NCBI RefSeq assembly: GCF_008000775.2
Contig: NZ_CP042905.2
Location: forward strand, 2,310,001-2,342,000
Origin: Promethearchaeum syntrophicum
GTDB lineage: Archaea; Asgardarchaeota; Lokiarchaeia; Sigyniarchaeales; Promethearchaeaceae
Length of the DNA stretch: 32,000 nucleotides
Reading direction: 5' to 3'
Part shown: in pieces, positions 3,601 through 30,645 of the stretch
Layout: every line of letters begins with the position of its first letter
Numbering within the stretch: position 1 is the stretch's first letter
Program-made: the position numbers and the translations under genes
Notes under the pieces: model-generated
The model's database searches: none
What the model saw: only the letters and a program-made list of their open reading frames with translations
Told to the model about the DNA's origin: nothing

Positions 3601-3877
3601 TTTTTACTTCATCGATTTACGAAGACGCAGTAATCAAATATTCGATTTAGAATGTGATTTCAATACCTTAGAATATTTTTTAATTTCACACCTTGGTCTA
3701 AATCATCTACCTGATTGGATGTTCTCTTCCCAAAATATAATTAAAGTTAAAATACATCACGGCGATATAGGGAAGTCCTATGATCAAATCTTTCAATCTG
3801 TTGAAAAAGGAGTTTTCCACTTCTTTGTTCAAAACGGATGCAGAATTCCGGAAAATATTGGTAGTTTTGTAAAATAG
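626..3877 (+). CDS. NLR-like STAND NTPase: N-terminal hydrophobic segment + coiled-coil region, NACHT NTPase, C-terminal leucine-rich repeats
   Basis: 1083-aa ORF. Hydrophobic stretch WALMIGPVFIPAATPISACVSFISQFL (aa 37-63). Walker A GHMGLGKT (nt 1424-1447). Walker B LLLIFDGFDE (nt 1619-1648), which has the NACHT-type hhhhDGxDE form. LIIFLTSR motif. LRRs such as LTNLIELKRLSLANNQIVNIPKSIEKLRFLEFLELDNNYITQIPQEIQKLKNL from about aa 635, with further degenerate LRRs toward the C-terminus. TATA-like aaatatataaat lies ~30 nt upstream of the ATG. Confidence 0.85.
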   Translation: MPKKKEKNSNQLPNEKSEKWKNFKKNAAKGLKTTLKWALMIGPVFIPAATPISACVSFISQFLSKQLHMEIDEKQISDRLSKDTNSISSKLITSEIINHLKTKNKSITNKKSIEIEDTLIKLEKSLEYIQKNQERDPDSFKEVYQGFLEELKEENIENYSKLQKVISKQNDFFDSFNQNIVGFLDDIKQPLWNSKFQNQKKILEYTDDDLQFFCQKQLEIEEISSRYDEPYDKERFVPVQKLEDEFERFSKNLQNKVSKERIFLMLGHMGLGKTWNASYIGYKYNDQIPTFIFNLGTAFETKFENCFGDLFEKNPLENYFKRKTSNQYGEKLLLIFDGFDEILPNEREDIFNSIINLVKTNPNKLIIFLTSRLVDWIHTPVVYSKARSYRNYIFQNQQFDSFEDISIPTGASFILSDINDSTFLKEITSKYEIDYDLIQNPKIKILLHKPFIVKLISSHNPDLAYQDFNPQDDKWFQIFAGPKKYNTILHRMGILEAVENTFQDLICMIGDPYTPILEQELREFIKPNQIHWDIIFSSGIIKKRQKNLQNEFYFPDEYQDFIERYITELKGIFHENVICKADVYALESIEKELSGFKIQNYTFVPYKDLNVGYKLNNKGRVIEMYLKKLQNKLSYFPEGLTNLIELKRLSLANNQIVNIPKSIEKLRFLEFLELDNNYITQIPQEIQKLKNLNRISIKNNNIQFFKGWWNNLKNLKYMNISNNTSHIEGHTIKSVPKNCSIIDDGFEENSEIVLKDAAIIDYLNNLKNENFEKRSANFKDLHLISLTLRNAEYDEFKGLFWSSENLASLEIQGKSVKFMHNSSIKKLIFRQDKTRELMIDESISQLESLESLQIYGYNTLELPESLKKCEKLKQIIIQCPELQVLPQILLEIKNFHNIFVSTSNIPLNDIDLGEYQDSEKSLIIIQLNKQYNFADLLIPEHIHNFCLISRINMPKKVIVKGKLRKFFYLSINKITMDFYKNLSFGHDKNIGNFYFIDLRRRSNQIFDLECDFNTLEYFLISHLGLNHLPDWMFSSQNIIKVKIHHGDIGKSYDQIFQSVEKGVFHFFVQNGCRIPENIGSFVK

Positions 3878-4199
3878 TACCCAGACGGAAAAACCAGAGC
3901 TGTAAGGCAACGCCAAACCAGAAGGCGATAAGTAAAGAAGAACTTAAAAAACAAATAACTAAAAATGTTGAAGAAAAAGTCAAAGTCGAATACAGAGAGA
4001 AATTTAAAAAATTCTAAATTTACTGCTTTGGATGCTCTTTTCTAGTTTTGATAATCAAAACACTCACAACTATCCCTGCAACTATCCAAAATTTCCATCC
4101 GAAAGAAATTGATTCGCTTTCTTCAGGATTCTCAAGTTCATCAGTGTCATAAATATTGTAAGTTTCATTGCTGTAGGTATTATTGATGTATTGTTATAT

Positions 4200-4412
4200 C
4201 TAAAAAGGAAGGGAAAGAAAATCACCAAAAAGTCTACTCATACCATCGGTACTTTCGGTTCCACTTTTTGATGTCAGGATTTCCATCCCGATAGTTTGCC
4301 CCAGCGGGGCGTTTCTCTGCCGGATTGTATCCTGATTAAAATTTTCTAATTTCTGATAGGCACCGAATTCAGATAAATCTTCTCCTGTACCAAGGTTTCT
4401 AATACGTAACAT
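4200..4412 (-). CDS. hypothetical small protein (doubtful, possibly a gene remnant)
   Basis: 70-aa ORF in a locally GC-richer stretch with no recognisable motif. The same frame continues past TAG and TAA stops into a hydrophobic C-terminal tail (see findings). Confidence 0.25.
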   Translation of the reverse strand: MLRIRNLGTGEDLSEFGAYQKLENFNQDTIRQRNAPLGQTIGMEILTSKSGTESTDGMSRLFGDFLSLPF

Positions 4413-4465
4413 TATTTTAGATAACCTTTAAGTACCAGTTGATATACAAGTTTATTTTTACCTAA

Positions 4466-4663
4466 TTACTGAAATTTCCAAATATCGATGTTTTTTTCTG
4501 AAAATCGAACTAATACTCCACAATTGGGACATACATCATAATACATTTTAGGTGAACCATAAGTGGTACGTTCAGATATATGATCCCATTCCTTGAATGT
4601 TGATACTTCATTACACACTTTACACTTCATTTTCTGATTTTTATCAATACCCATAACTAACAT
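4466..4663 (-). CDS. small zinc-ribbon protein
   Basis: 65-aa ORF with CxxC...CxxC (KCKVCNEV...VCPNCGV). Divergent from the TIR-LRR gene, 101 nt away. Confidence 0.5.
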   Translation of the reverse strand: MLVMGIDKNQKMKCKVCNEVSTFKEWDHISERTTYGSPKMYYDVCPNCGVLVRFSEKNIDIWKFQ

Positions 4664-4764
4664 TAGATTATAAAAAAATAAAAATTAGAACAATAATAAT
4701 TATTGATAGATTTCAAAAGACAAAAGAGGGAGATTTTATTTCGAGCGGTACCAAACATTCAACT

Positions 4765-5916
4765 ATGAATATTTTTATTAGTTATGCTAGCTCAGATTTA
4801 ACTTCTTTTCGCATCTCGGATATCGCCATTCGTATGGAAAATACTGTGGAAATTGAACGTGTGTTTTACTGGGACCGTGACTCTACCGCTCAGAAATCTA
4901 TCGTCAAATACATGGAAGAATCAATAACGGTTAGCGATGTGATCTTGATTGTCTGCACTGAAGCTTCCAATGAATCTGGACCAGTGCAACAAGAGACGGA
5001 TATGGCAGTATACCTAAATAAACGAATAGTACCAATATTTCAAGATATCAATGATGTTCGCCTAAGTTTACGTCCCAAACGAGGAGTAAAATATTATACT
5101 GATGACTTCGATTCCTTTTTCAAAGAACTTTTCATGGTGGTAACAGAATTATTGCCCGAAATCCCTCAAGAAGAAGAAATTGCCGAATTTCATGGAATTC
5201 CTTTAGCAATAGATGAATATCGGGCTATGAAAAGTTTGGAAGAACAACTAGGGATTATAATTCCACCTATTGAACCCTTTTATAAAAAAAAAAATGTTAG
5301 ATTTTTCACAGATATCGATTATTATCTGAATGAAGATAACTTGAAAAGAGGATTTGGATTCGCTGCAGAAAGAAATCACTTAATCCAACTAAAATTTAAC
5401 CGAGTTCCAGATGAAGATGAGGAAAATCCTCCTATAATAAAATTTTTTCCCGATGCATTAAGTCAGTTATTATATCTCAGAGCTTTGGATCTTAGCTATC
5501 AAAGTATCTCTATAATTCCTAATTTTATCGGAAAATTAACTCAATTGGAGTATTTTAATATAAGAAACAATAAAATCCAAAGATTTCCTAAGATTTTGAC
5601 TCAATTGAAAAACCTCAAATTTTTCTTATTCTCTAATGTTTCTATTGTTGAATATTTAAAAGATGAAATTTTTATAACAAGAAGTAATTATGAAATCTTA
5701 AATTCATTACTAGAAAATCTGTGTAAGTTAGACCTATATATCAATAATATTCCGTATTATTGGTCAAAACTTAAGGCAAAAAATCATTATGCTCATTGTG
5801 TTCATTGTGGTCATAAATTAAATTTCGAATTAAATGATCTTCCCACAAATAATGATAATTTGATGATATGTCCGAAATGTCAAAATGGAGAATTCTATAA
5901 CTTCAGTATAAAGTAA
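4765..5916 (+). CDS. TIR domain - LRR - C-terminal zinc-ribbon protein
   Basis: 383-aa ORF. N-terminus MNIFISYASSD...VFYWDRD...DVILIVCTEASNESGPVQQE has a TIR-like layout, with a candidate catalytic Glu77 at nt 4993-4995. LRRs LRALDLSYQSISIIPNFIGKLTQLEYFNIRNNKIQRFPKILTQLKNLKFF. C-terminal CVHCGH...ICPKCQ ribbon. Confidence 0.8.
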   Translation: MNIFISYASSDLTSFRISDIAIRMENTVEIERVFYWDRDSTAQKSIVKYMEESITVSDVILIVCTEASNESGPVQQETDMAVYLNKRIVPIFQDINDVRLSLRPKRGVKYYTDDFDSFFKELFMVVTELLPEIPQEEEIAEFHGIPLAIDEYRAMKSLEEQLGIIIPPIEPFYKKKNVRFFTDIDYYLNEDNLKRGFGFAAERNHLIQLKFNRVPDEDEENPPIIKFFPDALSQLLYLRALDLSYQSISIIPNFIGKLTQLEYFNIRNNKIQRFPKILTQLKNLKFFLFSNVSIVEYLKDEIFITRSNYEILNSLLENLCKLDLYINNIPYYWSKLKAKNHYAHCVHCGHKLNFELNDLPTNNDNLMICPKCQNGEFYNFSIK

Positions 5917-6334
5917 ACGATTAAATTTGGCTCTTTTTTTATATTTGACTCAATTGGAGTATTTATATTTAAGAAAAAACAAAATCAAGAGGTTTCCAGA
6001 AATACTATCTCAATTCAGAAATCTAAAAATATTCCTATTCTATGATAATTTGCTATCTGATAATCGCAGTCCCGGTTCCATGACACAAAGTAATTATAAT
6101 ACCTTAAAATTTTTACTCAATAACAAATGCAAGATAGATGATGGGTTTAAAACTATGGTTGCTACCGACTACAGAAAAGTCCATGCATTATATAAAACTA
6201 TCTATTGTATTTTCTGTGGACATGGTTTTAATATATACCAAGAAAATCTTCCAATTAATGCATCAAAGAAATGGATATTATGTCCGAATTGTAACAGCGA
6301 AAAACATTATGAATTCAAAAGTATAGTTGAAGAT
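5536..6334 (+). repeat. diverged tandem duplication of the LRR/Zn-ribbon coding segment (copy 1 ~5536-5913, copy 2 ~5945-6334)
   Basis: At the DNA level, 'actcaattggagtattt' opens both copies, followed by colinear codon-level similarity. The protein alignment is described above. Confidence 0.65.
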
Positions 6335-6337
6335 TGA
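5927..6337 (+). CDS. LRR + zinc-ribbon fragment: truncated tandem paralog of the 3' third of the TIR-LRR gene (possibly a pseudogene)
   Basis: 136-aa ORF with a TTG start, 10 nt after the upstream stop. LTQLEYLYLRKNKIKRFPEILSQFRNLKIFLF...CIFCGHGF...LCPNCN aligns colinearly with aa ~258-383 of the upstream protein. It has no TIR domain. Confidence 0.5.
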   Translation: MALFLYLTQLEYLYLRKNKIKRFPEILSQFRNLKIFLFYDNLLSDNRSPGSMTQSNYNTLKFLLNNKCKIDDGFKTMVATDYRKVHALYKTIYCIFCGHGFNIYQENLPINASKKWILCPNCNSEKHYEFKSIVED

Positions 6338-6566
6338 TTATCAAGTTTTATAACTATTTTTTAGTGTAGCAAAACCTTTTTGTGTTCTTATCTCAAACAA
6401 AATAATGAGGAAATCAAAAGACAAACGAATTTGATATTAAAGGTCTAAAGCAAATATTGAAATTGTTTAAAGTTACTCTCTCAAAAGTTAAAACTGAATT
6501 GAATTTTCTCACTTTATATGGACAAACATCTTATTTTGTGAGATTGTAATTCGTTATATGAATTTT

Positions 6567-17058: not shown

Positions 17059-17403
17059 GAAAAATTACTTTGGATAGAATCAATTTACAGTTTCAAATAT
17101 CCTAATTCAGTCTGGAAAATGTCGTAAATAAAGGTCATTTCCGATAATAATTCAAAGTGAAAAGGAAAATGAATGAACTTGAAGATTGGTGTTAAAAAAC
17201 AACTTGATCTACTTCAAGGGGGTAATGATTATTATTTTAAACTTTTAATTCTAATTCTTTGTAATCTATATCCAGATTCCTATGAGTGTAATGCTACTTG
17301 ATTTCTGATTTTTATTTTTGTGCTTGGAAAATTGTCTAAAAAGCCTTATAATCAATAAAATATAACAATAAAATATTATTTTCAATAAGGTTTTGGTTAA
17401 AAT

Positions 17404-18666
17404 ATGGAAAAAATAAACAGAAAAGATATCGAATCTACCTTTAATAATTTAATATCACCAAAATTGAAAGATTTAAATCTCGTTTTCGATTTTGAAAAGA
17501 AATTGACGGAAATAAAAAAAAAAGCAGATATTATAATTTACAAGAATCCACCCATCATCTTAGAAATAAAAATTTCTACCTCGTTCTCTATATTACAGTT
17601 TTTAAAATTTGATCTTATTCAATGGAAAAAATATAACAATGGATATTGCAAAATAATGTACATATTCCTTAATAATATTGATCTCAAGAAATCATACCTA
17701 AGTGAACAAAGATTTAAGAAATATATAACTGAACATCCCGAAATATCACATTTCATTGATGAATACATATTTTTAGAATATGACGAAAATGCAAATCTAT
17801 TAGAAAATATTGATTTGCAGGAAATAACTGATAAAATAAAAAAATTATTGGAATCAGATTTAGTAATCACCCCAATTATCGATAAAATGAATTCTTATAA
17901 TATTGGTTTTGATTCACAAAAAAATCTCCCTTCAATTGAATATTTTGATGAGAACTCAATCGGATTATTTGAAATTTTATTAACATTCTTATATAGTAAG
18001 GCATCTCAAGAGAATCAAGAAAATATCAAGAGTAAATTTATTCGTTTAGAAAATGAAAATCCAAGCAATCAGCTCTTTTTGAATTCTTTTGAATACTTTT
18101 TTGAGAATGGTTTTAATAAAATGGATGAGACTCTCTTCATTTCGCTTTTTGATAAATTTCCAAGTAATTATTTTCAGAAATTTAGTAAAAATACGCAAGA
18201 TCCTGTATGTAATTTCTTTGCGAATTTAAAATCCACTTTAGAACCACTTTTTCCAAAAACACAAATCTGTACTAAAAAGTATAATTTAGTCGAAAAAAAA
18301 ATTGAATTAATAAAACATATATTGTCTCATACTAATTTTAATATTTTTTCTGATCAAATCAAACTAAAGGAACAAGATTCGATACTTTTATTAGATGATG
18401 GCAATTCAATAGTTATTTTCTGTATTTATCAAAGATTTGCAAATTTTGACTTCTATAGTAATTACTTATTTGCACGTTATGCAATTAAGTCGAAAAAATT
18501 CTATCCAATTATTTTTTATTGTGAATCCAGTGTCCTACATACAAAAAGGTATTATCGATTAAAAAATTCGAAATTAATTTCAATCAAAATAACAGAGTTT
18601 AAAAAAACAATAGACAATGTAAATAGAATTTTCAAACAAATTGGAGGATTAAATGTCGATGGTTGA
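17404..18666 (+). CDS. hypothetical protein with a possible N-terminal PD-(D/E)xK nuclease motif
   Basis: 420-aa ORF. KKADIIIYKNPPIILEIKIS fits a D...ExK nuclease core. No NTPase motif. The 3' end overlaps the next gene by 14 nt. Confidence 0.5.
   Translation: MEKINRKDIESTFNNLISPKLKDLNLVFDFEKKLTEIKKKADIIIYKNPPIILEIKISTSFSILQFLKFDLIQWKKYNNGYCKIMYIFLNNIDLKKSYLSEQRFKKYITEHPEISHFIDEYIFLEYDENANLLENIDLQEITDKIKKLLESDLVITPIIDKMNSYNIGFDSQKNLPSIEYFDENSIGLFEILLTFLYSKASQENQENIKSKFIRLENENPSNQLFLNSFEYFFENGFNKMDETLFISLFDKFPSNYFQKFSKNTQDPVCNFFANLKSTLEPLFPKTQICTKKYNLVEKKIELIKHILSHTNFNIFSDQIKLKEQDSILLLDDGNSIVIFCIYQRFANFDFYSNYLFARYAIKSKKFYPIIFYCESSVLHTKRYYRLKNSKLISIKITEFKKTIDNVNRIFKQIGGLNVDG
18643..18647 (+). 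promoter_or_regulatory. Shine-Dalgarno-like GGAGG for the coupled downstream gene
   Basis: ggagg lies 5 nt upstream of the ATG at 18653, inside the 3' end of the upstream ORF. Confidence 0.5.
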
Positions 18667-19606
18667 AGAAAATTTAACTCAAAATCAGAATGAAGGTTCA
18701 GAAATTGATGATGTTTCTAATGAACAATTAAACGACACAATTTTATCCGAATTAGATGAGGAACAAGAAGAGTATCAAGAATTAATTTTGGAACGAGAAA
18801 AAGAACAAGAAGAATTTGAGAAATCTGTTGAAGAGTTGAAAGAGGAATTAAAACCTTTAATAAATAATTTTTGCGAAATTTGTTCAAAGACAGATAAAAT
18901 TACATTTGAACAAGAAATCAAGCAAATTTACAAAGAATACGAAGCTAATCATTATAGTGCATTAGCATTATATTGTGGAAGGGTTTATGAATATATTATT
19001 TATCAGCTAGGTTGGAAAGTTTTACAAAATGCTATGTATTCAACAATGTTTGTTAATTCCGAACCAGAAAGAAAAAGAAGACATACTATAATAAATGAAA
19101 TCGAAGGCTATTTAACTATTAAAGCCTATGGTCATTCTAAAACAGATTATTCTCAATATTTTCGAATCTACGATGATAAAATTTATAGTATCCGAAATAA
19201 AGCAGCCCATCCAAAATATGATGGAAGTTTTAGTCTGATTTCTAAACGAGAAGCAGAAGAGGCAATTAAAACTTTGATTGAGGCGATATCATTTTTAAAT
19301 GAGAAATTTTATCAAGTTAAACAAATAGAAAAAGGAATAGAATTTGAAATTCGAGCAATTTTTGATAGGATAATGCCTTTTTTTAGTGGAACAATAGAGA
19401 TACAAGAAGAAATTTTGCATTTTAAAGAAAATGAAGATATAATAAAGGCATTTATTGAATTCTTTAAATTGATCATAATTGAAAAAAGTTGGAAATATCA
19501 GGCTGAATTTAATAAATTATTAAAAGAAAATGTAGATATTAGAGAATCATTAAAGATTTTAAAAAAAATATACAAGGATTTAAATTTAAAAAGTCTAGAT
19601 AATTAA
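18653..19606 (+). CDS. HEPN-like domain protein with an acidic coiled-coil N-terminus
   Basis: 317-aa ORF. RNKAAH (aa 181-186, nt 19193-19210) fits the HEPN Rx4-6H motif, in the context IYSIRNKAAHPKYDG...EAEEAIKTLIEAISFL. The N-terminal ~70 aa are E/Q-rich. Confidence 0.65.
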   Translation: MSMVEENLTQNQNEGSEIDDVSNEQLNDTILSELDEEQEEYQELILEREKEQEEFEKSVEELKEELKPLINNFCEICSKTDKITFEQEIKQIYKEYEANHYSALALYCGRVYEYIIYQLGWKVLQNAMYSTMFVNSEPERKRRHTIINEIEGYLTIKAYGHSKTDYSQYFRIYDDKIYSIRNKAAHPKYDGSFSLISKREAEEAIKTLIEAISFLNEKFYQVKQIEKGIEFEIRAIFDRIMPFFSGTIEIQEEILHFKENEDIIKAFIEFFKLIIIEKSWKYQAEFNKLLKENVDIRESLKILKKIYKDLNLKSLDN

Positions 19607-19785: not shown

Positions 19786-21507
19786 TTATATATCTAAAAT
19801 TTTCTGAAATTGTTCTTTTATTAATTTTTCTCGCTCTCCGATAAAATTCTGAAAATTTGAAAAAGATAAATCTACATTAGGGATAAAATTTTGATTTTTA
19901 TAAATTATAATTTGCTCATTATCAAATGTATTATTAAGCCATGATAAGAAATCCTTATTAGATTTTTCTTCGTTCAATTTTCCAGACATTAGCTGCAGAT
20001 TACCGATTTTATCACATATTTTACGAAATATGTCAATATTTTCTTCCGAAATACCTAATTCTCTAAGTTTCTTCTTTTTAAAATAACTTTTAGGAAAAAT
20101 ATGATCTTGATGAAAATGATTTCTAAAATCTAAAGAGGGATAGAGAAGAGACAAAATAGTAAAAGTAAATCTTTGACCATATTTATTAGATAATAATTCA
20201 TCAATTTCATCATTAGTAAAAATTAAAGATTTAGGGGTTCCTCGAAAATGTTCAATCATTTCGTTAATTGGAAAATACTTAGGATTTTGTTGAATTATTG
20301 TTCTCATCGGTAGTAATACATTATCAGGCTGTCCACTAAACATTCTTTTTAAAAGCACAATAGCTAACCATTTCTGTATTATTTTTCGATCATTTTTGTA
20401 TAAATCAGATGAAAGGAAGGAACTAGAAAAATCATTAGTATAAATAAAATATGCTATTGGGATTATTGAATTATTTGAAGACAAGGTTTGAAAACTATAA
20501 CCTAAATTCGCAATTAGATTTATTGTGATTCTCAAAGTTTTTTTTATTTTATTCCAATTTTCTTCAATGGTTAACATATTATTTTTATTAAAATTATCAA
20601 CTTTAAACGCAATCTTGGGAAAATTACATAGCACCAAACACGTTTTTAAAATAAAATCTTTACTAAATTTAAAGCCATCCGGAATTTTATTGATTTCATC
20701 ATTAAAAGCTGATATCTGTTCACGAGCATCCAATTTTTCCCATTGAGCAGTCGCAATGGACAGTAATAAATCTGAATAGCTCAATATTGTCCCACCACTG
20801 TTAATTCTAATAAAAATATTTAATACTTTATCTAATTCTTGACTTTTCTCCATAAAATAATTAATATTTTCTTCAAAATTAATTCCTTCAAAAAGAGCAG
20901 ATAAGCGTTTATGAATTTTTTTATTTTCAAATAATCCATGAGATACTAAGTATGAAAAAACATCACCTAAATCTCCCATATCTAAAATTTTTCCCACCTT
21001 GAACCATCGTTCTTGTTCAGATTGAATTGATGCTTCTTTGGGAGTTAAAAATTGAAAATCATATTTCATATCGCTTTCTTGGGAATCTCTCATTAGATTA
21101 ATGTATAATATTTTTTTGGGAAAAGCTGTATCGTTAAACCAACGTTTTCTGGGTATTTTTTCTGCATAACTACCTTTTAATCCTAAATACAATGCTGTTA
21201 ATCTTTGTTGACCATCAAGAATAGCAATTAAATCATTATCTCCATAAATAGATGCTTTTTGATTATGTTTATTATCCCGTTCATGAAAGTTCCGTATAAA
21301 TTCATAAAATTGAAAATTATTTTTCTTTTCATTCGCGACTTCCCATAAAAGGAAAGAACCAATTGGATATTTTTGCATTATTGAATCAAATAATCTACAT
21401 ATTTGTTTTTTATTCCATACAAATTCCCTTTGAATTGCAGGAAGAATATAATTTTTCTTCTGTATTTTATTAATTACTTCTTTTATTGTAATTTTTGCAT
21501 GTGGCAT
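19786..21507 (-). CDS. DUF262 + DUF1524 (GmrSD-like) putative type IV modification-dependent restriction endonuclease
   Basis: 573-aa ORF. N-terminal ILPAIQREFVWNKKQ and LDGQQRLTALYLG are DUF262/ParB-like hallmarks. C-terminal HQDHIFPKS...GNLQLMSGKLNEEKSNK has a DUF1524 His-Me finger pattern. Confidence 0.85.
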   Translation of the reverse strand: MPHAKITIKEVINKIQKKNYILPAIQREFVWNKKQICRLFDSIMQKYPIGSFLLWEVANEKKNNFQFYEFIRNFHERDNKHNQKASIYGDNDLIAILDGQQRLTALYLGLKGSYAEKIPRKRWFNDTAFPKKILYINLMRDSQESDMKYDFQFLTPKEASIQSEQERWFKVGKILDMGDLGDVFSYLVSHGLFENKKIHKRLSALFEGINFEENINYFMEKSQELDKVLNIFIRINSGGTILSYSDLLLSIATAQWEKLDAREQISAFNDEINKIPDGFKFSKDFILKTCLVLCNFPKIAFKVDNFNKNNMLTIEENWNKIKKTLRITINLIANLGYSFQTLSSNNSIIPIAYFIYTNDFSSSFLSSDLYKNDRKIIQKWLAIVLLKRMFSGQPDNVLLPMRTIIQQNPKYFPINEMIEHFRGTPKSLIFTNDEIDELLSNKYGQRFTFTILSLLYPSLDFRNHFHQDHIFPKSYFKKKKLRELGISEENIDIFRKICDKIGNLQLMSGKLNEEKSNKDFLSWLNNTFDNEQIIIYKNQNFIPNVDLSFSNFQNFIGEREKLIKEQFQKILDI

Positions 21508-22303: not shown

Positions 22304-23476
22304 ATGGTATATTTAGGTACCAAGAAGGAAGAGTTACCACCCTACATTTCAAACCTTATCTTTTTTAAATTGGAACCAGAGAAGAAAGCTTTTCAAAAAT
22401 CGATTTTAAAAATGATTTTTAATTTTGCAAGAATCACTAAAAGAAACATTTTTATTGATTATAGTTTGGAGGAGTTAGAGAGCTATATTAACGATTTCTT
22501 TGACAAATACATGAAATTTTTCAAAAAATATCAATCAATAGATAAACTAAGAAAGAATATGTATGCAAAAGTAAATAAAAAATTGAGCGAATTTATGTAC
22601 TTTAGAGAAATATTACTTATAAAAAGTGAAGCAGCAGCTTTACAAAAAATTGAAAAATCACAATCTATTGAATTTATTTCAGGAGATGAGTGTAAATTCT
22701 ATACAAATCATTTTAAGTCTTCAAAAGTAGGATATGTCACAACAATATCGATATGTAAAACTGATTCATTACCTAAGGAATTATTAAAATTTAAAAAACT
22801 TAATGAACTAATCCTTCCAGATTATAATTCTGAATCATTTCCTGATTGGATCGGGGAATTATCAACTTTAAAGCACTTAATTTCTCAGGATTGCAAAATT
22901 AAACATTTACCTCCTTCACTTGTTAATCTGAAAAAACTTGAAACTTTAAATTTAACACATAGTTCTATGGAAAATTTGCCTGATTTCATTGGTAAATTAG
23001 AAAATTTGAAATATATTAATTTTTCACATAGTAAAATCACATCTATCCCCCAAAGTTTTCAAGATTTAAAAAATTTAGAAAAGTTATATTTTGCATGTAC
23101 GGATATTAAGATTCTCCCTGAATTGATTGGAAATTTAGAAAACTTGGTTGAATTATCTGGGAATTTTGAAATTTTACCAGAATCTATTGGTAATTTAACA
23201 AATTTGAAAAAATTCCACTCTTCAAATATAAAAAATATCCCAAAATCCTTTTTAAATTTAAAGAATTTAAAAGAAGGCTTAATATTTATATCCCTTGATA
23301 CAGATTTATCACCAGAAATGATTGAGTTTCTAGAAAAATTAAAAATTAAAGATTGTATTGTATTATATTCAGAAAAATGCTATGATGATTTTTATAATAA
23401 TACTTGGGTGAGTAAGAATGGTGGAAAAACAAAAGAAAAATTATCTAGTGTTGCAAAATTTATCAAAGAAAAATAG
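22304..23476 (+). CDS. leucine-rich repeat protein with an unknown ~105-aa N-terminal region
   Basis: 390-aa ORF. LRRs include FPDWIGELSTLKHLISQDCKIKHLPPSLVNLKKLETLNLTHSSMENLPDFIGKLENLKYINFSHSKITSIPQSFQDLKNLEKL. Confidence 0.85.
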   Translation: MVYLGTKKEELPPYISNLIFFKLEPEKKAFQKSILKMIFNFARITKRNIFIDYSLEELESYINDFFDKYMKFFKKYQSIDKLRKNMYAKVNKKLSEFMYFREILLIKSEAAALQKIEKSQSIEFISGDECKFYTNHFKSSKVGYVTTISICKTDSLPKELLKFKKLNELILPDYNSESFPDWIGELSTLKHLISQDCKIKHLPPSLVNLKKLETLNLTHSSMENLPDFIGKLENLKYINFSHSKITSIPQSFQDLKNLEKLYFACTDIKILPELIGNLENLVELSGNFEILPESIGNLTNLKKFHSSNIKNIPKSFLNLKNLKEGLIFISLDTDLSPEMIEFLEKLKIKDCIVLYSEKCYDDFYNNTWVSKNGGKTKEKLSSVAKFIKEK

Positions 23477-23733: not shown

Positions 23734-25035
23734 CTAAAACATTGAATCCGATTTCAGACATATACTTGGATAAGGAGCTTCTGGGGCGAATGATGTCTTA
23801 TCTCGTAGAGATGCGTAGGTAATTTTTGCAATCTTGCCTGCTATAATACAATATGCAAGTTTTTTAGATCGATCTCCTTTTCGGGCGAGAATGCGGTTTG
23901 TATACGCTTTTAGATCGGATTCATGTTTTAGAAAATTACAAACCACTACTGCCGCATTATAAAAGAGTGTGCGTAAGAATTTGTTAGAATGTCGATTTGT
24001 GTGCGCATGATAGATCTTTCCTGCTGAACTTACTACATTTGGGCAACATCCACAATACGAACGAAAATGTCGCCAAGATGGAAAATAGGATATTGAACCA
24101 ATCTCGGCTAAAATCCAAACTGCCGAAAATGAGGAGATACCTGGGATTGTAGATAATTGATGTGCTTGTTGCCTAAGACCTGGACAATCTAAAAGTAGTT
24201 TATCTACTTCCAAAGCAAGAATGGTTTTACGGCTGGTTTTAAAATCTAAATCAATCAAATGTTGTCGAATTAGTGCTCGTTGTACAGAAGTAAGGGATAA
24301 TTCGTAAAATGACTCAAATTTGGCTTCATTTTTAACCAAACTATTTCGATGTTTTAATAAAACATTAGGATTTTGCATAAAATCTTGAGTGAATTGTCCT
24401 AATGTCTTTGATTGCTGAATAAACCCATAAAGGAAATATTTGGTCCATTCATGATTCAAATTTAATCCGCGAGGACGAATGCCTGCACGATCCAACGTTT
24501 TTCGAATTCGATTCTTTAGCATTGTACGATCTTTTTCTAGTTTTATGGCCATTCGGAAGATTGCTTTGAGATCTTCAAGAATAAAAATAATTTTCTTACC
24601 ATTTTTAAGGAGGCCATTAGCGACGTACTTTGCAAGTTTGATGGCATCAATCTTATCGTGTTTTGCAGTACCTGGAATTCCCGCAGCGTCTGCTGGATTT
24701 GAAACAACTATGTCATAAGACCAACTCGAATCAAGCCGTTTTCTTTCTAAAAATTGAACAACGGCATGATGATAGATTCCTGTAGATTCCATCGCAAATG
24801 CTACAGGGCGATATTTTTTTACAAATCCAAAAAGTTGTCTTAATCCATCTTGATCCGTTTGAAAAATACTGGTTTTTATAAAATCTCTGTTAGTTCGGTC
24901 TCTTGCATAGATACAAGCAGTAATTTCATGTTTATGCACATCCATCCCACAATAATAAATCACTCTTGTGAGATCTTCCGAAAATTTAAACGGTTTCTTT
25001 TCCATAATATACTCACCCTTCAAGGGACCAAACAC
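23734..25035 (-). CDS. IS110-family (DEDD) transposase
   Basis: 433-aa ORF. N-terminal CGMDVHKHE...ESTGIYHH is RuvC-like DEDD. C-terminal PGISSFSAVWILAEIGSISYF...FRSYCGCCPNVVSSAGK...NKFLRTLFYNAA is Transposase_20-like. The true start may be the second Met (ATG at 25005-25003). Confidence 0.9.
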   Translation of the reverse strand: MFGPLKGEYIMEKKPFKFSEDLTRVIYYCGMDVHKHEITACIYARDRTNRDFIKTSIFQTDQDGLRQLFGFVKKYRPVAFAMESTGIYHHAVVQFLERKRLDSSWSYDIVVSNPADAAGIPGTAKHDKIDAIKLAKYVANGLLKNGKKIIFILEDLKAIFRMAIKLEKDRTMLKNRIRKTLDRAGIRPRGLNLNHEWTKYFLYGFIQQSKTLGQFTQDFMQNPNVLLKHRNSLVKNEAKFESFYELSLTSVQRALIRQHLIDLDFKTSRKTILALEVDKLLLDCPGLRQQAHQLSTIPGISSFSAVWILAEIGSISYFPSWRHFRSYCGCCPNVVSSAGKIYHAHTNRHSNKFLRTLFYNAAVVVCNFLKHESDLKAYTNRILARKGDRSKKLAYCIIAGKIAKITYASLRDKTSFAPEAPYPSICLKSDSMF

Positions 25036-25489: not shown

Positions 25490-25984
25490 TTATTTATATA
25501 AATTAGAATTTATTAGATTTCTTTTTGTATTTCCAAAAATTCGGACAATTGAATCCATCCATCCCATTGTAATACATTCTTTAATTGAAATTGTTTTAAA
25601 TTCCTCTTTATTTTTTTTATTTATCTTTGTTGGCATTCTATCTATTTCATGAACTGATACCCAATACCATGTATAATACCCGCTTTCTTTAGTAGTTATT
25701 GCAAGCCATACTTCTAAATCATATGATTTAGCAAATTTTAATAATTTCTGAAATTCGTTGATTCCAATAGTAAAATTTCCATATTTCGTATAAATTCGTT
25801 TTAATTTAACATCAACATAAATATCTCTCTGATAAGGAAGCTGAATAACAAAATCTGGGCGTTTAATTATCATAGAAAAGGATTCTGCAAACGTTTCTGG
25901 ACTTTGATCAATAAAATACCATGAAGTTTTTTGATGATTTAACCAATTTTTAAATTTTTCCTCGCTAAGAGTCAAGTTTTGCAT
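25490..25984 (-). CDS. PD-(D/E)xK-like nuclease fold protein
   Basis: 164-aa ORF. KRPDFVIQLPYQRDIYVDVKLK fits a PD...(D/E)xK core. The start is 4 nt after the upstream stop. GGAGG (minus strand, plus 25996-26000) lies 11 nt upstream of the ATG. Confidence 0.55.
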   Translation of the reverse strand: MQNLTLSEEKFKNWLNHQKTSWYFIDQSPETFAESFSMIIKRPDFVIQLPYQRDIYVDVKLKRIYTKYGNFTIGINEFQKLLKFAKSYDLEVWLAITTKESGYYTWYWVSVHEIDRMPTKINKKNKEEFKTISIKECITMGWMDSIVRIFGNTKRNLINSNLYK

Positions 25985-25988
25985 TTTA

Positions 25989-27032
25989 TTATTTTCCTCC
26001 TTTTTTTATACATTCAGGATGATATCTAAATCCTAGATCATCTTCAATGACTTTTTCAGACAAAACATAATAAATATCTCCTGAAATCTTTACTTCTCCA
26101 ATTGTTCCCCAAATTAAAGAATTTAAATCACCATATAATTCCATTATTAAATCTTTTGACATACTTTTATAGAATCTATAAGTCTTTTTTTCAATAGTTT
26201 CAAAATTAGTCCTATCGAGAAGTGAAATTGATTGATTAAATTCAGAACATAATTGAAAAATATTAAGTGGTAAACCGCAATATTCACAAGATTCACTAAG
26301 GTTCGATTTAAAACCAGAATAATTATCCCAAGTAAAAAAATGTTTAATTTTATCAAAAATATTTGTACTTAGACTAATTTTCTGTCGATAATAAACTGCA
26401 TGAGCACATTTCAAATGAGTTTTCAATTCATATGCAATTACTTCCGAAATGCTATCTATTAAAATAAGTTTTATATGAACTTTTGTTGATTCTACTTTTT
26501 GATAACAAATTGGACAGACATTTAATAATCGTGCAGCACGATAACTAAGTGTTATCATATTATCTTCATCAGGATGTCGGTATATTAACTCGTATCTTAA
26601 TAAAAGGTCTTTATTTTCAGATAATTGTTTCATCAGATCTTGATTATTTTGATCAAGTTTTTTCTCGGATCTAATATTTTTCTTTTCTAAATATATATAT
26701 ATCCGCTGTTTCGATAAATATTGAAAAAGCGACAAATATTTCTCGATATTTTTTTTGCCTTCATCCCAATTACTTGATATAAAATAACCTTTACCTGCAC
26801 TAAATTGAATTATCTCTTCTTTAATCAAATGTTTAGCATGATCATATATTGTGGTTTTTCCAACAGGTTGTTGTTTCTTTTTATCTCGATATTCATTTAT
26901 TTCTTTAAATAATTCTGCTAATGTTAATGTGTTTGAAGTAGCTTGCTGCAATGCAGAAATTATTTCATCATCACTTAATTTTTTCTTTTCTATTACATCT
27001 TCACTTATTTTTTTTGTCATAATTTTCATCAT
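25989..27032 (-). CDS. putative DNA-binding protein: N-terminal wHTH plus two Cys/His zinc-binding clusters
   Basis: 347-aa ORF. GKTTIYDHAKHLIKEEIIQFSAGKGYFIS is wHTH-like. Zinc-binding candidates are CPICYQ...HLKCAH and CEYCG...HPEC. Confidence 0.5.
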   Translation of the reverse strand: MMKIMTKKISEDVIEKKKLSDDEIISALQQATSNTLTLAELFKEINEYRDKKKQQPVGKTTIYDHAKHLIKEEIIQFSAGKGYFISSNWDEGKKNIEKYLSLFQYLSKQRIYIYLEKKNIRSEKKLDQNNQDLMKQLSENKDLLLRYELIYRHPDEDNMITLSYRAARLLNVCPICYQKVESTKVHIKLILIDSISEVIAYELKTHLKCAHAVYYRQKISLSTNIFDKIKHFFTWDNYSGFKSNLSESCEYCGLPLNIFQLCSEFNQSISLLDRTNFETIEKKTYRFYKSMSKDLIMELYGDLNSLIWGTIGEVKISGDIYYVLSEKVIEDDLGFRYHPECIKKGGK

Positions 27033-27750: not shown

Positions 27751-30645
27751 CTATTTATTCTCAATATCTTTAAAACTTTCTTCGATTTCTTGATATAATG
27801 AATCAATTAATCCAATAGGTATATTTAATGCTCTAAACCACGCTTCATCTAATTTTCTTAGACTATTCTCTTTATTCCTACGGGCTCCTTTAACCAGTTC
27901 TACTATATTAGGTCTTTCTTTCAGAGTTTTTCTTGTATTATGAATATTGGATGTTCTAATAATTTCGTTGAAATTTACTTCATCTTTTACAATTTTGGGA
28001 AAATCTGGAAAACGAAATTTTAAAAACAGATCGATTTGATATACTAAAACAAATTCAGCTCGTCTTTTTCGTGATTTTTCAACAACATCTAAAATAAAAA
28101 GTGAACTTGTTAAATAACTAAAAAATAAATCATCCATTTGACTATTACATCCCCTAAAACCTATTCGTATCATCATGGTGCCATTTTTTGGAGGTACAAA
28201 CTTTAAAGCAATAGATTTTGTGCTTTTAAAGTCAATTTTTTTGACAATCCCAATAGAAACCTTTGCTGGAGAGTGCATTGAATGCGAAGGTCCGAATAAT
28301 TTTGCCAAATGCGCTTTTTGACCCCAAGAAAAGTATTTTTTCATCTTTGGATGCTTTTCATGAAATAAAAAGAAATTCACCAATTCATTTGTATTAACTA
28401 CAGGAAAATATTCTCGGTAATTTTTTAAAGTTCGAGAAATTGCTGGTTTATAAACTTCAATAGGTAAATGTAAAAACTGAGGTGTATTTCCATCTGTGCT
28501 GATTACGGTATTTTTTGACGTAGCTTTTATAGTTATTTTGTCCTCTGTAATTTGAGAAATATCCCAATATTTATTTGGTAAAAACCAATAATCAACAGGT
28601 CTTGAAGCATTTTCAGTCACAACCGTAATACTCTGGCTTAAATCATTTTTATAATTCTCTTTATCAAGCGGATTTAATTTCTTTAAATTTAATGGAATGA
28701 AATTAGAATACAAAAGAAGCATCATCTTACTTGGTTGAAGATTCCACATTATACAAGATACACTTTTTACTTTTTCTTGTGGTATGTTCTGGATTAGAAA
28801 ATCTTTGGTTCTTAATAACGGCGCATCAGTTGCATCCCATGAATTTACCAAGCCATTTATATCTTTCTTACTTAGGATTCCAAATAATTTTATGAATCTA
28901 GCACATTTATCGTAATTTTTTTGTAAGATTATAATAATTTCATGGTCATCTGAATCTGAAAAGGATTCGTCTAAGTCCGAAGCTTCAATTAAATATTTAA
29001 TCCCAAATTCATTTTCTAAGATTGTTTTCCAAACATCCACCATATTAACAGTATTTATGGCACCAACTGGTAAAATGAATGCAAGTATACCATTTTCTTT
29101 TTTTACAAATTGAGGTAAAATTAAGATGAAGAAGGCATACAAATTTATGCTTGAAAAATTCAATTTTAAATTATTATTTTTTACTACATCTAAATTCAAT
29201 AGTTTTTTTCTGTAATTGGGTGTTAACCTCGAACCTCTTGTAAAAGGCGGGTTAGCTATTAGCACATCAATGCTATGGTTTAATTTTTTATAAACAGGTT
29301 TAACTAATTTTCGCTCATTTGCAGTTATTTTCACGATTGGAAAGAAACGTTCTATTCCTGAAACCAATGAGAAAACATCATGAGGATAAATGTAAACTTT
29401 ATTTGTCCATTTTGAAGGGTTTTGAATTGCTAGATTTACCGTCGTCATCATAGCAGCGATATCAGAGATATCCGAACCCCTAATATCATCTAAAAGTTTT
29501 TTGTGTTGTTTTAATTTCAATTCTTTTTTTCTATGATAAGCCTTTACTAGTAAGGTTCCAGATCCACAAGCAGGATCGTAAATTTTACTGCCTTTATCAT
29601 TTATTGCAAGCCTACATAATAATTCGGCAGCTTCATTTCTTGTATAGTAAGCTGCAAATTTCTTTCGTGTTTCAAATGGCATCAAACGTTGAAAAATTTG
29701 TCCAATTAAGTCATTTTCAATTACATATTTGCTTGAAATTCCTTCTAAATCAAAGATAATTTTTTGAAGTACATCTGAAGCATCATCCTCAAGGTAAGAA
29801 AAAACTTCTCGACTTTTTCCAAAGATTGAAGTGAAATTTAAATTATTATTTGGAATATCTTCAATAATTTCTTGGATTTGGGAGGGTATTCCATTTGATG
29901 TACTCAAAGGTCTCAAACGGGGTATTTTAAGACCGTTTTCAATACGGTACATCCGCAATACAATATAAAAAAGGAGTTGTGTTATTGCAATATAAGCTGC
30001 TGTTCTTTGAAAAAATGAATACCTATCTTTTAATTCTTGCTCGGTTAATTCTTTCTTTTTTGCAATTTTCTCTTGTTCATCATTCAGCCGTAAATGTTTT
30101 TCCCATTCTTCCCCGGGTATTTTTACAGTAAAACGAATTAACGAATCAATATAATTTTCAAGATCTTTTAAGATCTCTTCAGGTTCCTTCAATAATATTA
30201 AACCAGTGTAGTTCTCTATCTTTTTGGAGATAAATTCTGCCATTTTATGAAATGAATTGAATAAATGAACTTCAGAATTCTTAACGGTATATGTTGGCGT
30301 ATATTCATAAAAAATAAGATCTTCATAGTTAGTAACAAATCCGATTTTACAATTCAGTTCCTTACAATATTTCTTTAGTTGTAACTCGTCTTGTTCTAAA
30401 TTGCCCTTTCCTTTAATTTTTGTTTCAATTATTGCTGAAACCGCGTCTTTATTATCCCAAACTATCCTATTTTTGTCTAGCTCAATTTGGATCAGTTCAG
30501 TTTTGAATATAACAATATCTTCCTGAAAATGTTTTTTTTGAAATATTAACTCTTGAAAGACTCTAAATTGAATGCCTAATCTACTTTTCAAGAAATCTAT
30601 TAGCTCAGGGCGGTCTGTATGTTCTGACATTTTCAGATTTGGCAT
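27751..30645 (-). CDS. type IIG-like restriction-modification fusion: N-terminal PD-ExK nuclease motif + gamma-class N6-adenine DNA methyltransferase + C-terminal specificity region
   Basis: 964-aa ORF. D64...AIIETK76 is a nuclease-like motif. FAAYYTRNEAAELL. Motif I YDPACGSGT (plus 29557-29577). Motif IV NPPF (plus 29242-29253). About 490 aa follow the motifs as a putative target recognition region. Confidence 0.85.
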   Translation of the reverse strand: MPNLKMSEHTDRPELIDFLKSRLGIQFRVFQELIFQKKHFQEDIVIFKTELIQIELDKNRIVWDNKDAVSAIIETKIKGKGNLEQDELQLKKYCKELNCKIGFVTNYEDLIFYEYTPTYTVKNSEVHLFNSFHKMAEFISKKIENYTGLILLKEPEEILKDLENYIDSLIRFTVKIPGEEWEKHLRLNDEQEKIAKKKELTEQELKDRYSFFQRTAAYIAITQLLFYIVLRMYRIENGLKIPRLRPLSTSNGIPSQIQEIIEDIPNNNLNFTSIFGKSREVFSYLEDDASDVLQKIIFDLEGISSKYVIENDLIGQIFQRLMPFETRKKFAAYYTRNEAAELLCRLAINDKGSKIYDPACGSGTLLVKAYHRKKELKLKQHKKLLDDIRGSDISDIAAMMTTVNLAIQNPSKWTNKVYIYPHDVFSLVSGIERFFPIVKITANERKLVKPVYKKLNHSIDVLIANPPFTRGSRLTPNYRKKLLNLDVVKNNNLKLNFSSINLYAFFILILPQFVKKENGILAFILPVGAINTVNMVDVWKTILENEFGIKYLIEASDLDESFSDSDDHEIIIILQKNYDKCARFIKLFGILSKKDINGLVNSWDATDAPLLRTKDFLIQNIPQEKVKSVSCIMWNLQPSKMMLLLYSNFIPLNLKKLNPLDKENYKNDLSQSITVVTENASRPVDYWFLPNKYWDISQITEDKITIKATSKNTVISTDGNTPQFLHLPIEVYKPAISRTLKNYREYFPVVNTNELVNFFLFHEKHPKMKKYFSWGQKAHLAKLFGPSHSMHSPAKVSIGIVKKIDFKSTKSIALKFVPPKNGTMMIRIGFRGCNSQMDDLFFSYLTSSLFILDVVEKSRKRRAEFVLVYQIDLFLKFRFPDFPKIVKDEVNFNEIIRTSNIHNTRKTLKERPNIVELVKGARRNKENSLRKLDEAWFRALNIPIGLIDSLYQEIEESFKDIENK

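Follow-up and report, generated by a model that had tools for sequence, protein, structure and literature searches.

A rare two-gene module in the Asgard archaeon Promethearchaeum syntrophicum couples a divergent HEPN protein to a partner of an undescribed family

Within a stretch of 32,000 nucleotides (this whole stretch is called the window here) from the Asgard archaeon Promethearchaeum syntrophicum MK-D1, a member of the Lokiarchaeia, two genes that we name A and B (Table 1) form a conserved two-gene module, which occurs in three independent lineages with the same gene order, with overlapping genes and with differing flanks. As far as its sequence and a structural model allow us to judge, B is a genuine, if very divergent, HEPN protein, a member at the level of the superfamily. 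We put the chances at about even that the pair is an autonomous, co-transcribed and translationally coupled conflict module, either toxin–antitoxin (TA)-like or abortive infection (Abi)-like, in which B would be the effector and A its regulator.

A and B are real genes, because open frames of such length are improbable by chance and because both have homologs elsewhere: at the 25% GC of the window, stops make up about 8.8% of random codons, and a 420-codon open frame has a calculated probability of about 1e-17. The start of A is unambiguous because its ATG is the second codon after an upstream in-frame stop (the frame is open from 17401). B has an alternative in-frame ATG at 18659, which is the start taken by a public gene call (P0002, 315 aa) and which would shrink the overlap with A to 8 nt; the NCBI call has 317 aa, and the alternative leaves the picture unaltered.

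The translation signals point to a single transcript. The sequence GGAGG occurs 23 times in the 64,000 strand positions of the window, and an 8-nt stretch ahead of any one start would contain it by chance with a probability of about 0.003. Of the 23, three are found 5–12 nt before the start of an open reading frame (ORF) of at least 100 aa, namely those of B, of the distal gene at 25490-25984 and of an IS110 transposase, and the first genes of transcription units have no Shine–Dalgarno (SD)-like sequence within 25 nt upstream (again among window ORFs of at least 100 aa). The usual archaeal pattern is that first cistrons are leaderless and internal cistrons are led by an SD sequence. Because GGAGG marks distal genes and is absent at first genes, we take B to be the second cistron of an A–B transcript. 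Upstream of A, a 13-nt near-duplicate (TATAATCAATAAAA / TATAACAATAAAA) at 17347-17376, 28-57 nt before the ATG, could serve a leaderless A–B transcript as TATA box or operator, or may be a product of chance at 25% GC. Scans for sigma-70 promoters and intrinsic terminators were uninformative in archaeal DNA of this composition (56 sites vs 49 expected). A type III arrangement with an RNA antitoxin is ruled out by the absence of Rfam families from the window and of meaningful repeats, whether flanking, tandem or inverted, around the cassette, where we found just AT-rich chance matches.

Outside MK-D1 the A–B family is extremely rare. In an exhaustive phmmer search of 1.84e9 representative proteins, with A concatenated to B residues 71-317 as the query, no homolog of A was found at E ≤ 1e-3, and B had only three relatives: P0003 (215 aa, 1.5e-15), P0004 (220 aa, 8.1e-15) and P0005 (335 aa, 2.6e-4). 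P0003 is encoded on a 2.3-kb contig from SRR14865924 (L001) and P0004 on SDBT01000354.1 from the Loki's Castle sediment metagenome K1060, to which a contig in an ENA assembly labelled SAMN10404973 is near-identical; the Loki's Castle contig and its ENA copy (L002/L003) count as one lineage, and MK-D1 and SRR14865924 as the other two. Directly upstream, on the same strand and overlapping, lie P0007 (454 aa) before P0003 and P0006 (460 aa) before P0004, both devoid of Pfam domains and 42% identical to each other (E 5e-108). These are the only homologs of A, found with BLASTP at E 4e-7 over A residues 25-213 (P0007) and E 8e-5 over residues 17-88 (P0006). In a composition control for proteins rich in I, K, N and F, a hidden Markov model (HMM) built from P0006 and P0007 gave A 19.6 bits over residues 20-217, as against 4.2 bits for the best control among 2000 shuffles of A and about 300 window ORFs.

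The overlap measures 14 nt in L001 and 8 nt in L002/L003, and all three loci have B in the +1 frame. SD-like sites precede the B homologs too: in L003, GAGGAG stands 7 nt ahead of the ATG, and in L001, where the start is GTG, a weak GAAGAG stands 10 nt ahead of it. Programmed frameshifting into an A–B fusion, which the recurrent +1 frame would permit, is unnecessary, as each B begins at a start codon of its own with an SD-like site, and we see no slippery sequence. Identity among homologs is about 25% for A vs about 34-37% for B, and this faster divergence of A is what one would expect of the antitoxin or sensor that accompanies an effector. No further loci came from two scans of 185,579 GTDB species genomes or three scans of IMG/VR, tblastn against plasmid and phage collections gave no relatives, and a scan of JGI metagenomes returned SDBT01000354.1 again and nothing else. 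MK-D1 itself is apparently absent or masked in the GTDB species-representative set, so that the genome negatives exclude self. Word-indexed searches gave self only, for A and for B each on its own and, among the 8000 candidates to which that search was limited, for an alignment that joined both families. The preliminary description of this locus had proposed a tightly coupled cassette and had listed the 14-nt overlap, the GGAGG 5 nt before B, the motifs of both proteins, the acidic N-terminus of B and the lack of an NTPase motif; each of these was verified in the sequence, and the coupling, seen in overlap and SD sequence, extends to the two further lineages that our neighbourhood check retrieved, both with overlapping genes in the same order.

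That B is a HEPN protein, as was also proposed there, is supported by conserved residues, by the layout of the model and by sub-threshold family matches. RNKAAH is the sole Rx4-6H motif in B and proves nothing alone, because about 0.5 such motifs are expected by chance in 317 aa (calculated); the homologs give it meaning. R181, N182, A185 and H186 are invariant across B, P0003, P0004 and P0005, and so are E95, Y96, H100, G109, R110 and E113. The criteria for HEPN domains set out by Anantharaman et al. 2013 (PMC3710099) include an Rx4-6H motif in which the R is followed directly by N, D or H as a polar residue, an acidic residue in helix 2 close to the active site, and an insert between helices 2 and 3 of the core. 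In B the polar residue is N182, family-wide, and E113 is a conserved acidic residue that the model places in helix 2, together with the equally conserved G109 and R110. An AlphaFold2 (AF2) model built from the four-sequence alignment, with a confidence score (pLDDT) by block of 67-89 across the core and mostly >72, has four core helices as judged by secondary structure alone: 82-97, 101-123, 163-185 and a long one that begins at 198 after a loop. The insert falls at 126-157 and consists of helices 126-134 and 139-157, and the modelled position of the motif, at the end of helix 3, agrees with the definition in PMC3710099.

Family searches point the same way at scores below threshold. P0005 matches HEPN_Cthe2314 (2e-4), HEPN_MAE_28990 (3.9e-4) and DUF4145 (0.01); the B-family consensus matches HEPN_MAE_28990 (1.2e-3), HEPN_Swt1 (2.7e-3), DUF4145 (0.027), HEPN_Apea and HEPN; the core of B alone matches HEPN_RiboL-PSP (1.5e-3); and P0003 matches the PADLOC model CARF_HEPN (3e-3). 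We conclude that B founds a new, very divergent HEPN family whose nearest clade is that of MAE_28990/MAE_18760-like and DUF4145 proteins, belonging to no Pfam family by threshold. Matches of B to the PADLOC models Cas8f and BrxB (E ~1e-3, residues 14-105) fall in the acidic coiled-coil tail and are taken to be spurious and compositional. This tail is shared in composition by the three paired B proteins, the net charge of the first 60 residues being -19 in B, -23 in P0003 and -20 in P0004, and its sequence is not itself conserved; P0005 has a Schlafen AlbA_2 domain (5.6e-12) in its place. The C-terminal extension of B has no family match and is absent from P0003, P0004 and P0005.

A had been described as PD-(D/E)xK-like, from the motifs A41-D-I-I-I-Y46 and I51-I-L-E54-I-K56, and this assignment is not supported by comparison with the homologs. 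D42 and E54 are invariant in A, P0006 and P0007, together with S58, K75, N78 and G80 (K75-x2-N78-x-G80), but K56 is lost in both homologs, where P0007 reads E-I-I-R and P0006 E-V-V-S (the lysine is replaced by R or S in a gapped alignment and by I or V in an ungapped one). The motif of B is thus conserved throughout its family (R, N, A and H), and that of A only in its two acidic residues. No nuclease family was found for A, P0006 or P0007, or for their consensus or profiles, in Pfam, NCBIfam, PADLOC, PHROGs or PDB; the N-terminal profile of A alone gave no nuclease-family match either, and hhalign of the A family against the HSDR_N_2 domain, of restriction endonuclease (REase) type, in the type IIG enzyme at 27751-30645 reached E 0.32 over 18 columns.

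These results bear directly on the possibility that the pair is a dual-nuclease effector, with A an active PD-(D/E)xK DNase and B an RNase that together attack the DNA and RNA of an invader. D42...E54-x-K56 lies amid hydrophobic strands typical of REase cores, its two acidic residues are kept in all three family members, and HEPN domains fused or linked to REase modules are known, for example in DUF4145 proteins (PMC3710099). The AF2 single-sequence model of A places short strands at 42-45 and 53-56, but its pLDDT of 34 makes it unusable, and two invariant acidic residues among the 57 invariant columns of a three-sequence alignment are weak evidence. With the lysine replaced and no library match to a nuclease, we consider a dual-nuclease effector improbable, and we hold the same view of the narrower claim that the A family is an active DNase, conserved family-wide. 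Read by eye, the N-terminal hydrophobic pattern of A (a helix, strands 24-30, 41-47 and 51-58, a helix at 60-77 and a strand at 82-90) looks compatible with an alpha-beta-beta-beta-alpha-beta core, and a REase-like fold is possible, if on the doubtful side. Where the preliminary description had left the choice between a DNase/RNase system and a TA-like pair, the former has therefore lost ground and the latter fits better.

A has no Walker A or GxGxxG motif, nucleotidyltransferase (NTase) signature, CxxC pairs or long hydrophobic segment by motif check and Pfam, and Walker A and GxGxxG are likewise absent from B and from all A-family proteins. Within A we noticed a weak internal repeat, residues 8-39 (17425-17520) vs 150-180 (17851-17943), with hhalign E 0.03 and the shared pattern of a helix, N-x-x-F-D and K-L-P-x-I, the second copy of which cross-matches the N-termini of P0006 and P0007 (BLASTP E 0.3-0.5). 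The N-terminal module may thus have been duplicated long ago, but we do not rely on the repeat; similarity between the N-terminal and C-terminal parts of A is not significant.

How might such a pair work? By analogy with characterised HEPN enzymes, B would dimerise and cleave RNA independently of metal by means of R181, N182, H186 and E113, and this cleavage would arrest the cell or the invader, so that B would be harmful unless restrained. A, made in fixed proportion with B, would hold it inactive and, on a trigger that A may itself sense, would release or activate it. We assign A the part of neutralising or sensing partner because it occupies the upstream antitoxin slot of HEPN dyads and diverges faster than B. 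A basic patch toward the C-terminus of the A family (+9 in A 361-420 and +6 in P0007 391-420, weak in P0006) may, speculatively, pair electrostatically with the acidic tail of B. The RNase activity and toxicity of B, the A–B interaction, the direction of regulation and any antiviral role are what we infer from this picture. Another way to see the pair is as a split version of the Abi-like design in which a variable N-terminal domain is joined to HEPN, with P0005, a Schlafen–HEPN protein, as a fused cousin. A more specific and bolder version, that A–B is an undescribed Abi system, possibly confined to Asgard archaea, in which a new-fold sensor A, perhaps built on a degenerate and catalytically dead REase-like nucleic-acid-binding domain, unleashes a new family of HEPN RNases that bear an acidic tail as a nucleic-acid-mimic inhibitor, strikes us as unlikely.

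Several points weigh against an effector B under the control of A. The invariance of D42 and E54 leaves room for an enzymatic role of A, which is moreover the larger of the two proteins and, unlike known HEPN antitoxins, has no DNA-binding, NTase or ATPase domain that we can recognise. Matches of the B family to six Pfam HEPN families all lie below gathering thresholds, and a Foldseek search with the full-length model of B was dominated by long helices and found nothing significant in PDB and BFVD. Independent loci with the pair number only three, too few for statistics on association with defence islands, and gene order by itself does not say which partner is the toxin.

This last point invites a reversal of roles, with a toxic A that B neutralises through nucleic-acid mimicry by its acidic tail, the HEPN domain of B being secondary or regulatory. 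All paired HEPN proteins carry the strongly acidic 60-aa tail (net -19 to -23), the A family has its basic patch, and toxin-first gene order occurs in some TA families. The patch is weak in P0006, however, A has no recognisable toxic domain, and the strict conservation of a full catalytic HEPN signature argues that B is an enzyme rather than a mere inhibitor; we rate such a reversal as very unlikely. Less credible still is a housekeeping RNA-processing enzyme B with A as its accessory factor and no part in conflict. Some HEPN proteins, such as Las1 and Swt1, do act in RNA maturation (PMC3710099), and the B-family consensus weakly matches HEPN_Swt1, but a distribution of three lineages among 1.84e9 representatives, with no relatives in 185,579 species genomes, is incompatible with housekeeping, and the low-GC neighbourhoods rich in defence and TA genes speak against it too.

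An effector held in check by A would be at home in such surroundings, as conflict-gene neighbourhoods are found at all three loci. In MK-D1 the pair lies between a gene for an RHH protein upstream and a convergent GmrSD gene downstream, both correctly identified in the preliminary description and neither part of the unit, and the 25% GC window also contains a type IIG restriction-modification (RM) gene, TIR-LRR and STAND proteins, a DUF4145 HEPN protein and an IS110 element, GmrSD corresponding to HEC-05. In L003 (region 4872-6340), genes for a wHTH protein and for ARPP-1 (Pfam PF20208, E 4.8e-49) stand ahead of the pair, and a 106-aa gene of unknown function followed by an amidase gene stands behind it; VapB-PIN and MazE-PIN pairs and a SWIM-domain protein are also present. 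In L001, a YgjP-like metallopeptidase gene (2-190) ends 24 nt before the A homolog. Because the flanks differ among loci, the unit is the two genes alone. We considered a conserved third gene and rejected it, the RHH protein of MK-D1 corresponding to neither the wHTH gene nor the ARPP-1 gene of L003.

The same surroundings could be those of a plain addiction (TA) module that stabilises a mobile or variable island and has no direct antiviral function. The tight bicistronic architecture, the classical TA pairs near A–B in L003, the IS110 element and low GC of the window, and the patchy and very rare distribution would all suit an addiction module. Integrase or plasmid genes are not directly linked to the pair, though, no relative turned up in plasmid and phage collections or viral contigs, and the neighbours in MK-D1 are mostly dedicated defence genes (GmrSD, RM, TIR and STAND). 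TA and Abi roles can coexist, and we judge an addiction function to the exclusion of defence to be unlikely.

Some neighbours merit a note of their own (Table 1). The RHH protein has 320 aa of unknown sequence beyond its RHH part and an SD-like GAGGGTG ahead of its ATG. The DUF4145 protein, the second HEPN protein of the island, is without a family match over its N-terminal ~400 aa. A cluster of LRR genes at 626-6337 and 22304-23476, none of which matches PADLOC models, comprises a STAND/AAA + LRR protein (1083 aa), a TIR + LRR protein (383 aa) and an LRR protein at 22304-23476; an LRR-only ORF at 5927-6337, with a TTG start, follows the TIR + LRR gene by 10 nt and is possibly part of a split gene. 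Its local GC suggests that the IS110 transposase gene entered the island recently. Another uncharacterised coupled pair, at 25490-27032, lies between this gene and that of the type IIG RM enzyme.

Table 1. Positions in the window of genes A and B, their parts and signals, and neighbouring genes
Feature	Position	Strand	Description and basis
Gene A (DSAG12_02650)	17404-18666	+	ATG start, 420 aa; fold without assignment; upstream partner of the HEPN gene
Gene B (DSAG12_02651, WP_147663750.1)	18653-19606	+	ATG start, 317 aa; divergent HEPN protein, predicted RNase effector
A/B overlap	18653-18666	+	14 nt; stop TGA of A at 18664-18666; B in the +1 frame relative to A
Shine–Dalgarno sequence of B	18643-18647	+	GGAGG within the 3' end of A, exactly 5 nt before ATG 18653
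Best-conserved N-terminal region of A, residues 17-90	17452-17673	+	Holds D42...E54-x-K56; family alignments
Motif codons of A	D42 17527-17529; E54 17563-17565; K56 17569-17571	+	Sequence
Acidic N-terminal tail of B, residues 1-70	18653-18862	+	pLDDT <50 at residues 1-54
Predicted HEPN core of B, ~residues 80-225	18890-19327	+	AF2 model, invariant columns, sub-threshold Pfam HEPN matches
Rx4H motif of B, R181-N182-K183-A184-A185-H186	19193-19210	+	Codons read from sequence; end of helix 163-185/start of loop
C-terminal helical extension of B, residues 226-317 (~90 aa)	19328-19603	+	MK-D1 protein only; helices pLDDT 54-72
VapB-like RHH protein, 365 aa	15961-17058	+	NCBIfam NF050799 E 1.2e-5, residues 7-43, below cut-off
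GmrSD	19786-21507	-	Pfam GmrSD_N 2.3e-31, GmrSD_C 9.3e-7; PADLOC HEC-05 1.4e-223
DUF4145 HEPN protein, 481 aa	7701-9146	+	C-terminal DUF4145 E 4.7e-5, motif KRNDYVHD
Giant ORF, 1972 aa	9440-15358	+	Sub-threshold NACHT (7e-4) and novel-STAND NTPase (3e-3); no NCBIfam or PADLOC match
Smr-domain protein, 125 aa	15386-15763	-	Next after the 1972-aa ORF
IS110-family transposase	23734-25035	-	GTG start, GGAGG 5 nt upstream; local GC 36% vs ~25%
Two uncharacterised ORFs, 347 aa (25989-27032) and 164 aa (25490-25984)	25490-27032	-	4 nt apart, GGAGG before the distal one; no Pfam or PADLOC match

HEPN RNases that work with a controlling partner recur in prokaryotic immunity and TA biology, so that A–B, if B is indeed its effector, is of a known kind; the A family and the B family are both undescribed. 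The searchable literature holds no mention of the locus tags or accessions of A and B, and a literature search on ARPP-1 gave unrelated papers only. The new element is the partner, a family of proteins of 420-460 aa whose MK-D1 member lacks a detectable relative among 1.84 billion representatives. Should A prove to be a sensor or antitoxin of new fold, it would represent a new mode of HEPN control in a tractable two-gene system. The host was the first Asgard archaeon to be cultured, and its immune repertoire is relevant to how eukaryotic immunity arose. The functional roles we assign are predictions, and the rarity of the module, in three lineages, limits its general biological significance.

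Comparison with known systems sets the pair apart from each while showing what it shares with them. In agreement with the preliminary description, it matches no named system: A, P0006 and P0007 match none of the PADLOC-DB 2.0 HMMs, and nothing reached threshold in PADLOC, Pfam, NCBIfam, PHROGs or PDB. Among named HEPN families, the MAE_28990/MAE_18760-like family (Pfam PF18737) fits the B-family consensus best, and P0005 has the Schlafen+HEPN architecture described for it, but the scores of 19.5-21.1 bits stay below the Pfam gathering cut-off of 26.8 bits, and B differs in its acidic N-terminal tail and in the 90-aa C-terminal extension of the MK-D1 protein. The MAE_18760 family comprises Schlafen–HEPN fusions and dyads with an upstream ParA/Soj gene, the proposed antitoxin (Anantharaman et al. 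2013, PMC3710099). Those dyads resemble A–B in placing a larger gene upstream of the HEPN gene; the A family, with neither Walker A nor a Pfam match, is not a ParA/Soj (SIMIBI) ATPase.

HEPN–MNT pairs, or type VII TA systems (NTase+HEPN pairs such as the PDC-M05-like ones of PADLOC), are common in archaea (PMC3710099, PMC12988326) and likewise consist of two adjacent genes, with the HEPN RNase toxin downstream and its neutraliser upstream. No NTase family matches A, P0006 or P0007, however, and B is in another HEPN clade than DUF86/HEPN-T. A carries neither a domain nor a motif of nucleotidyltransferases, so one would not expect it to neutralise by AMPylation. DUF4145 HEPN proteins, which in restriction-modification contexts occur fused with or linked to helicase modules and modules of restriction-endonuclease fold (PMC3710099), set a precedent for combining REase and HEPN; the B-family consensus and P0005 match DUF4145 weakly, and a DUF4145 protein is encoded in the same island. 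Yet the REase fold of A is unproven and its lysine not conserved, A and B are separate genes rather than a fusion, and hhalign of the B family against the DUF4145 domain of the neighbour reaches only E 0.03, with the RN..H motifs lined up. Abi-like and RnlAB HEPN systems, whose families have no sequence match to A or B, have in common with our proposal a HEPN RNase for suicide or arrest that is governed by a variable moiety which senses or neutralises. RnlAB has its toxin in first position and a small antitoxin, whereas in our pair the first gene encodes the non-HEPN partner, which is the larger of the two proteins.

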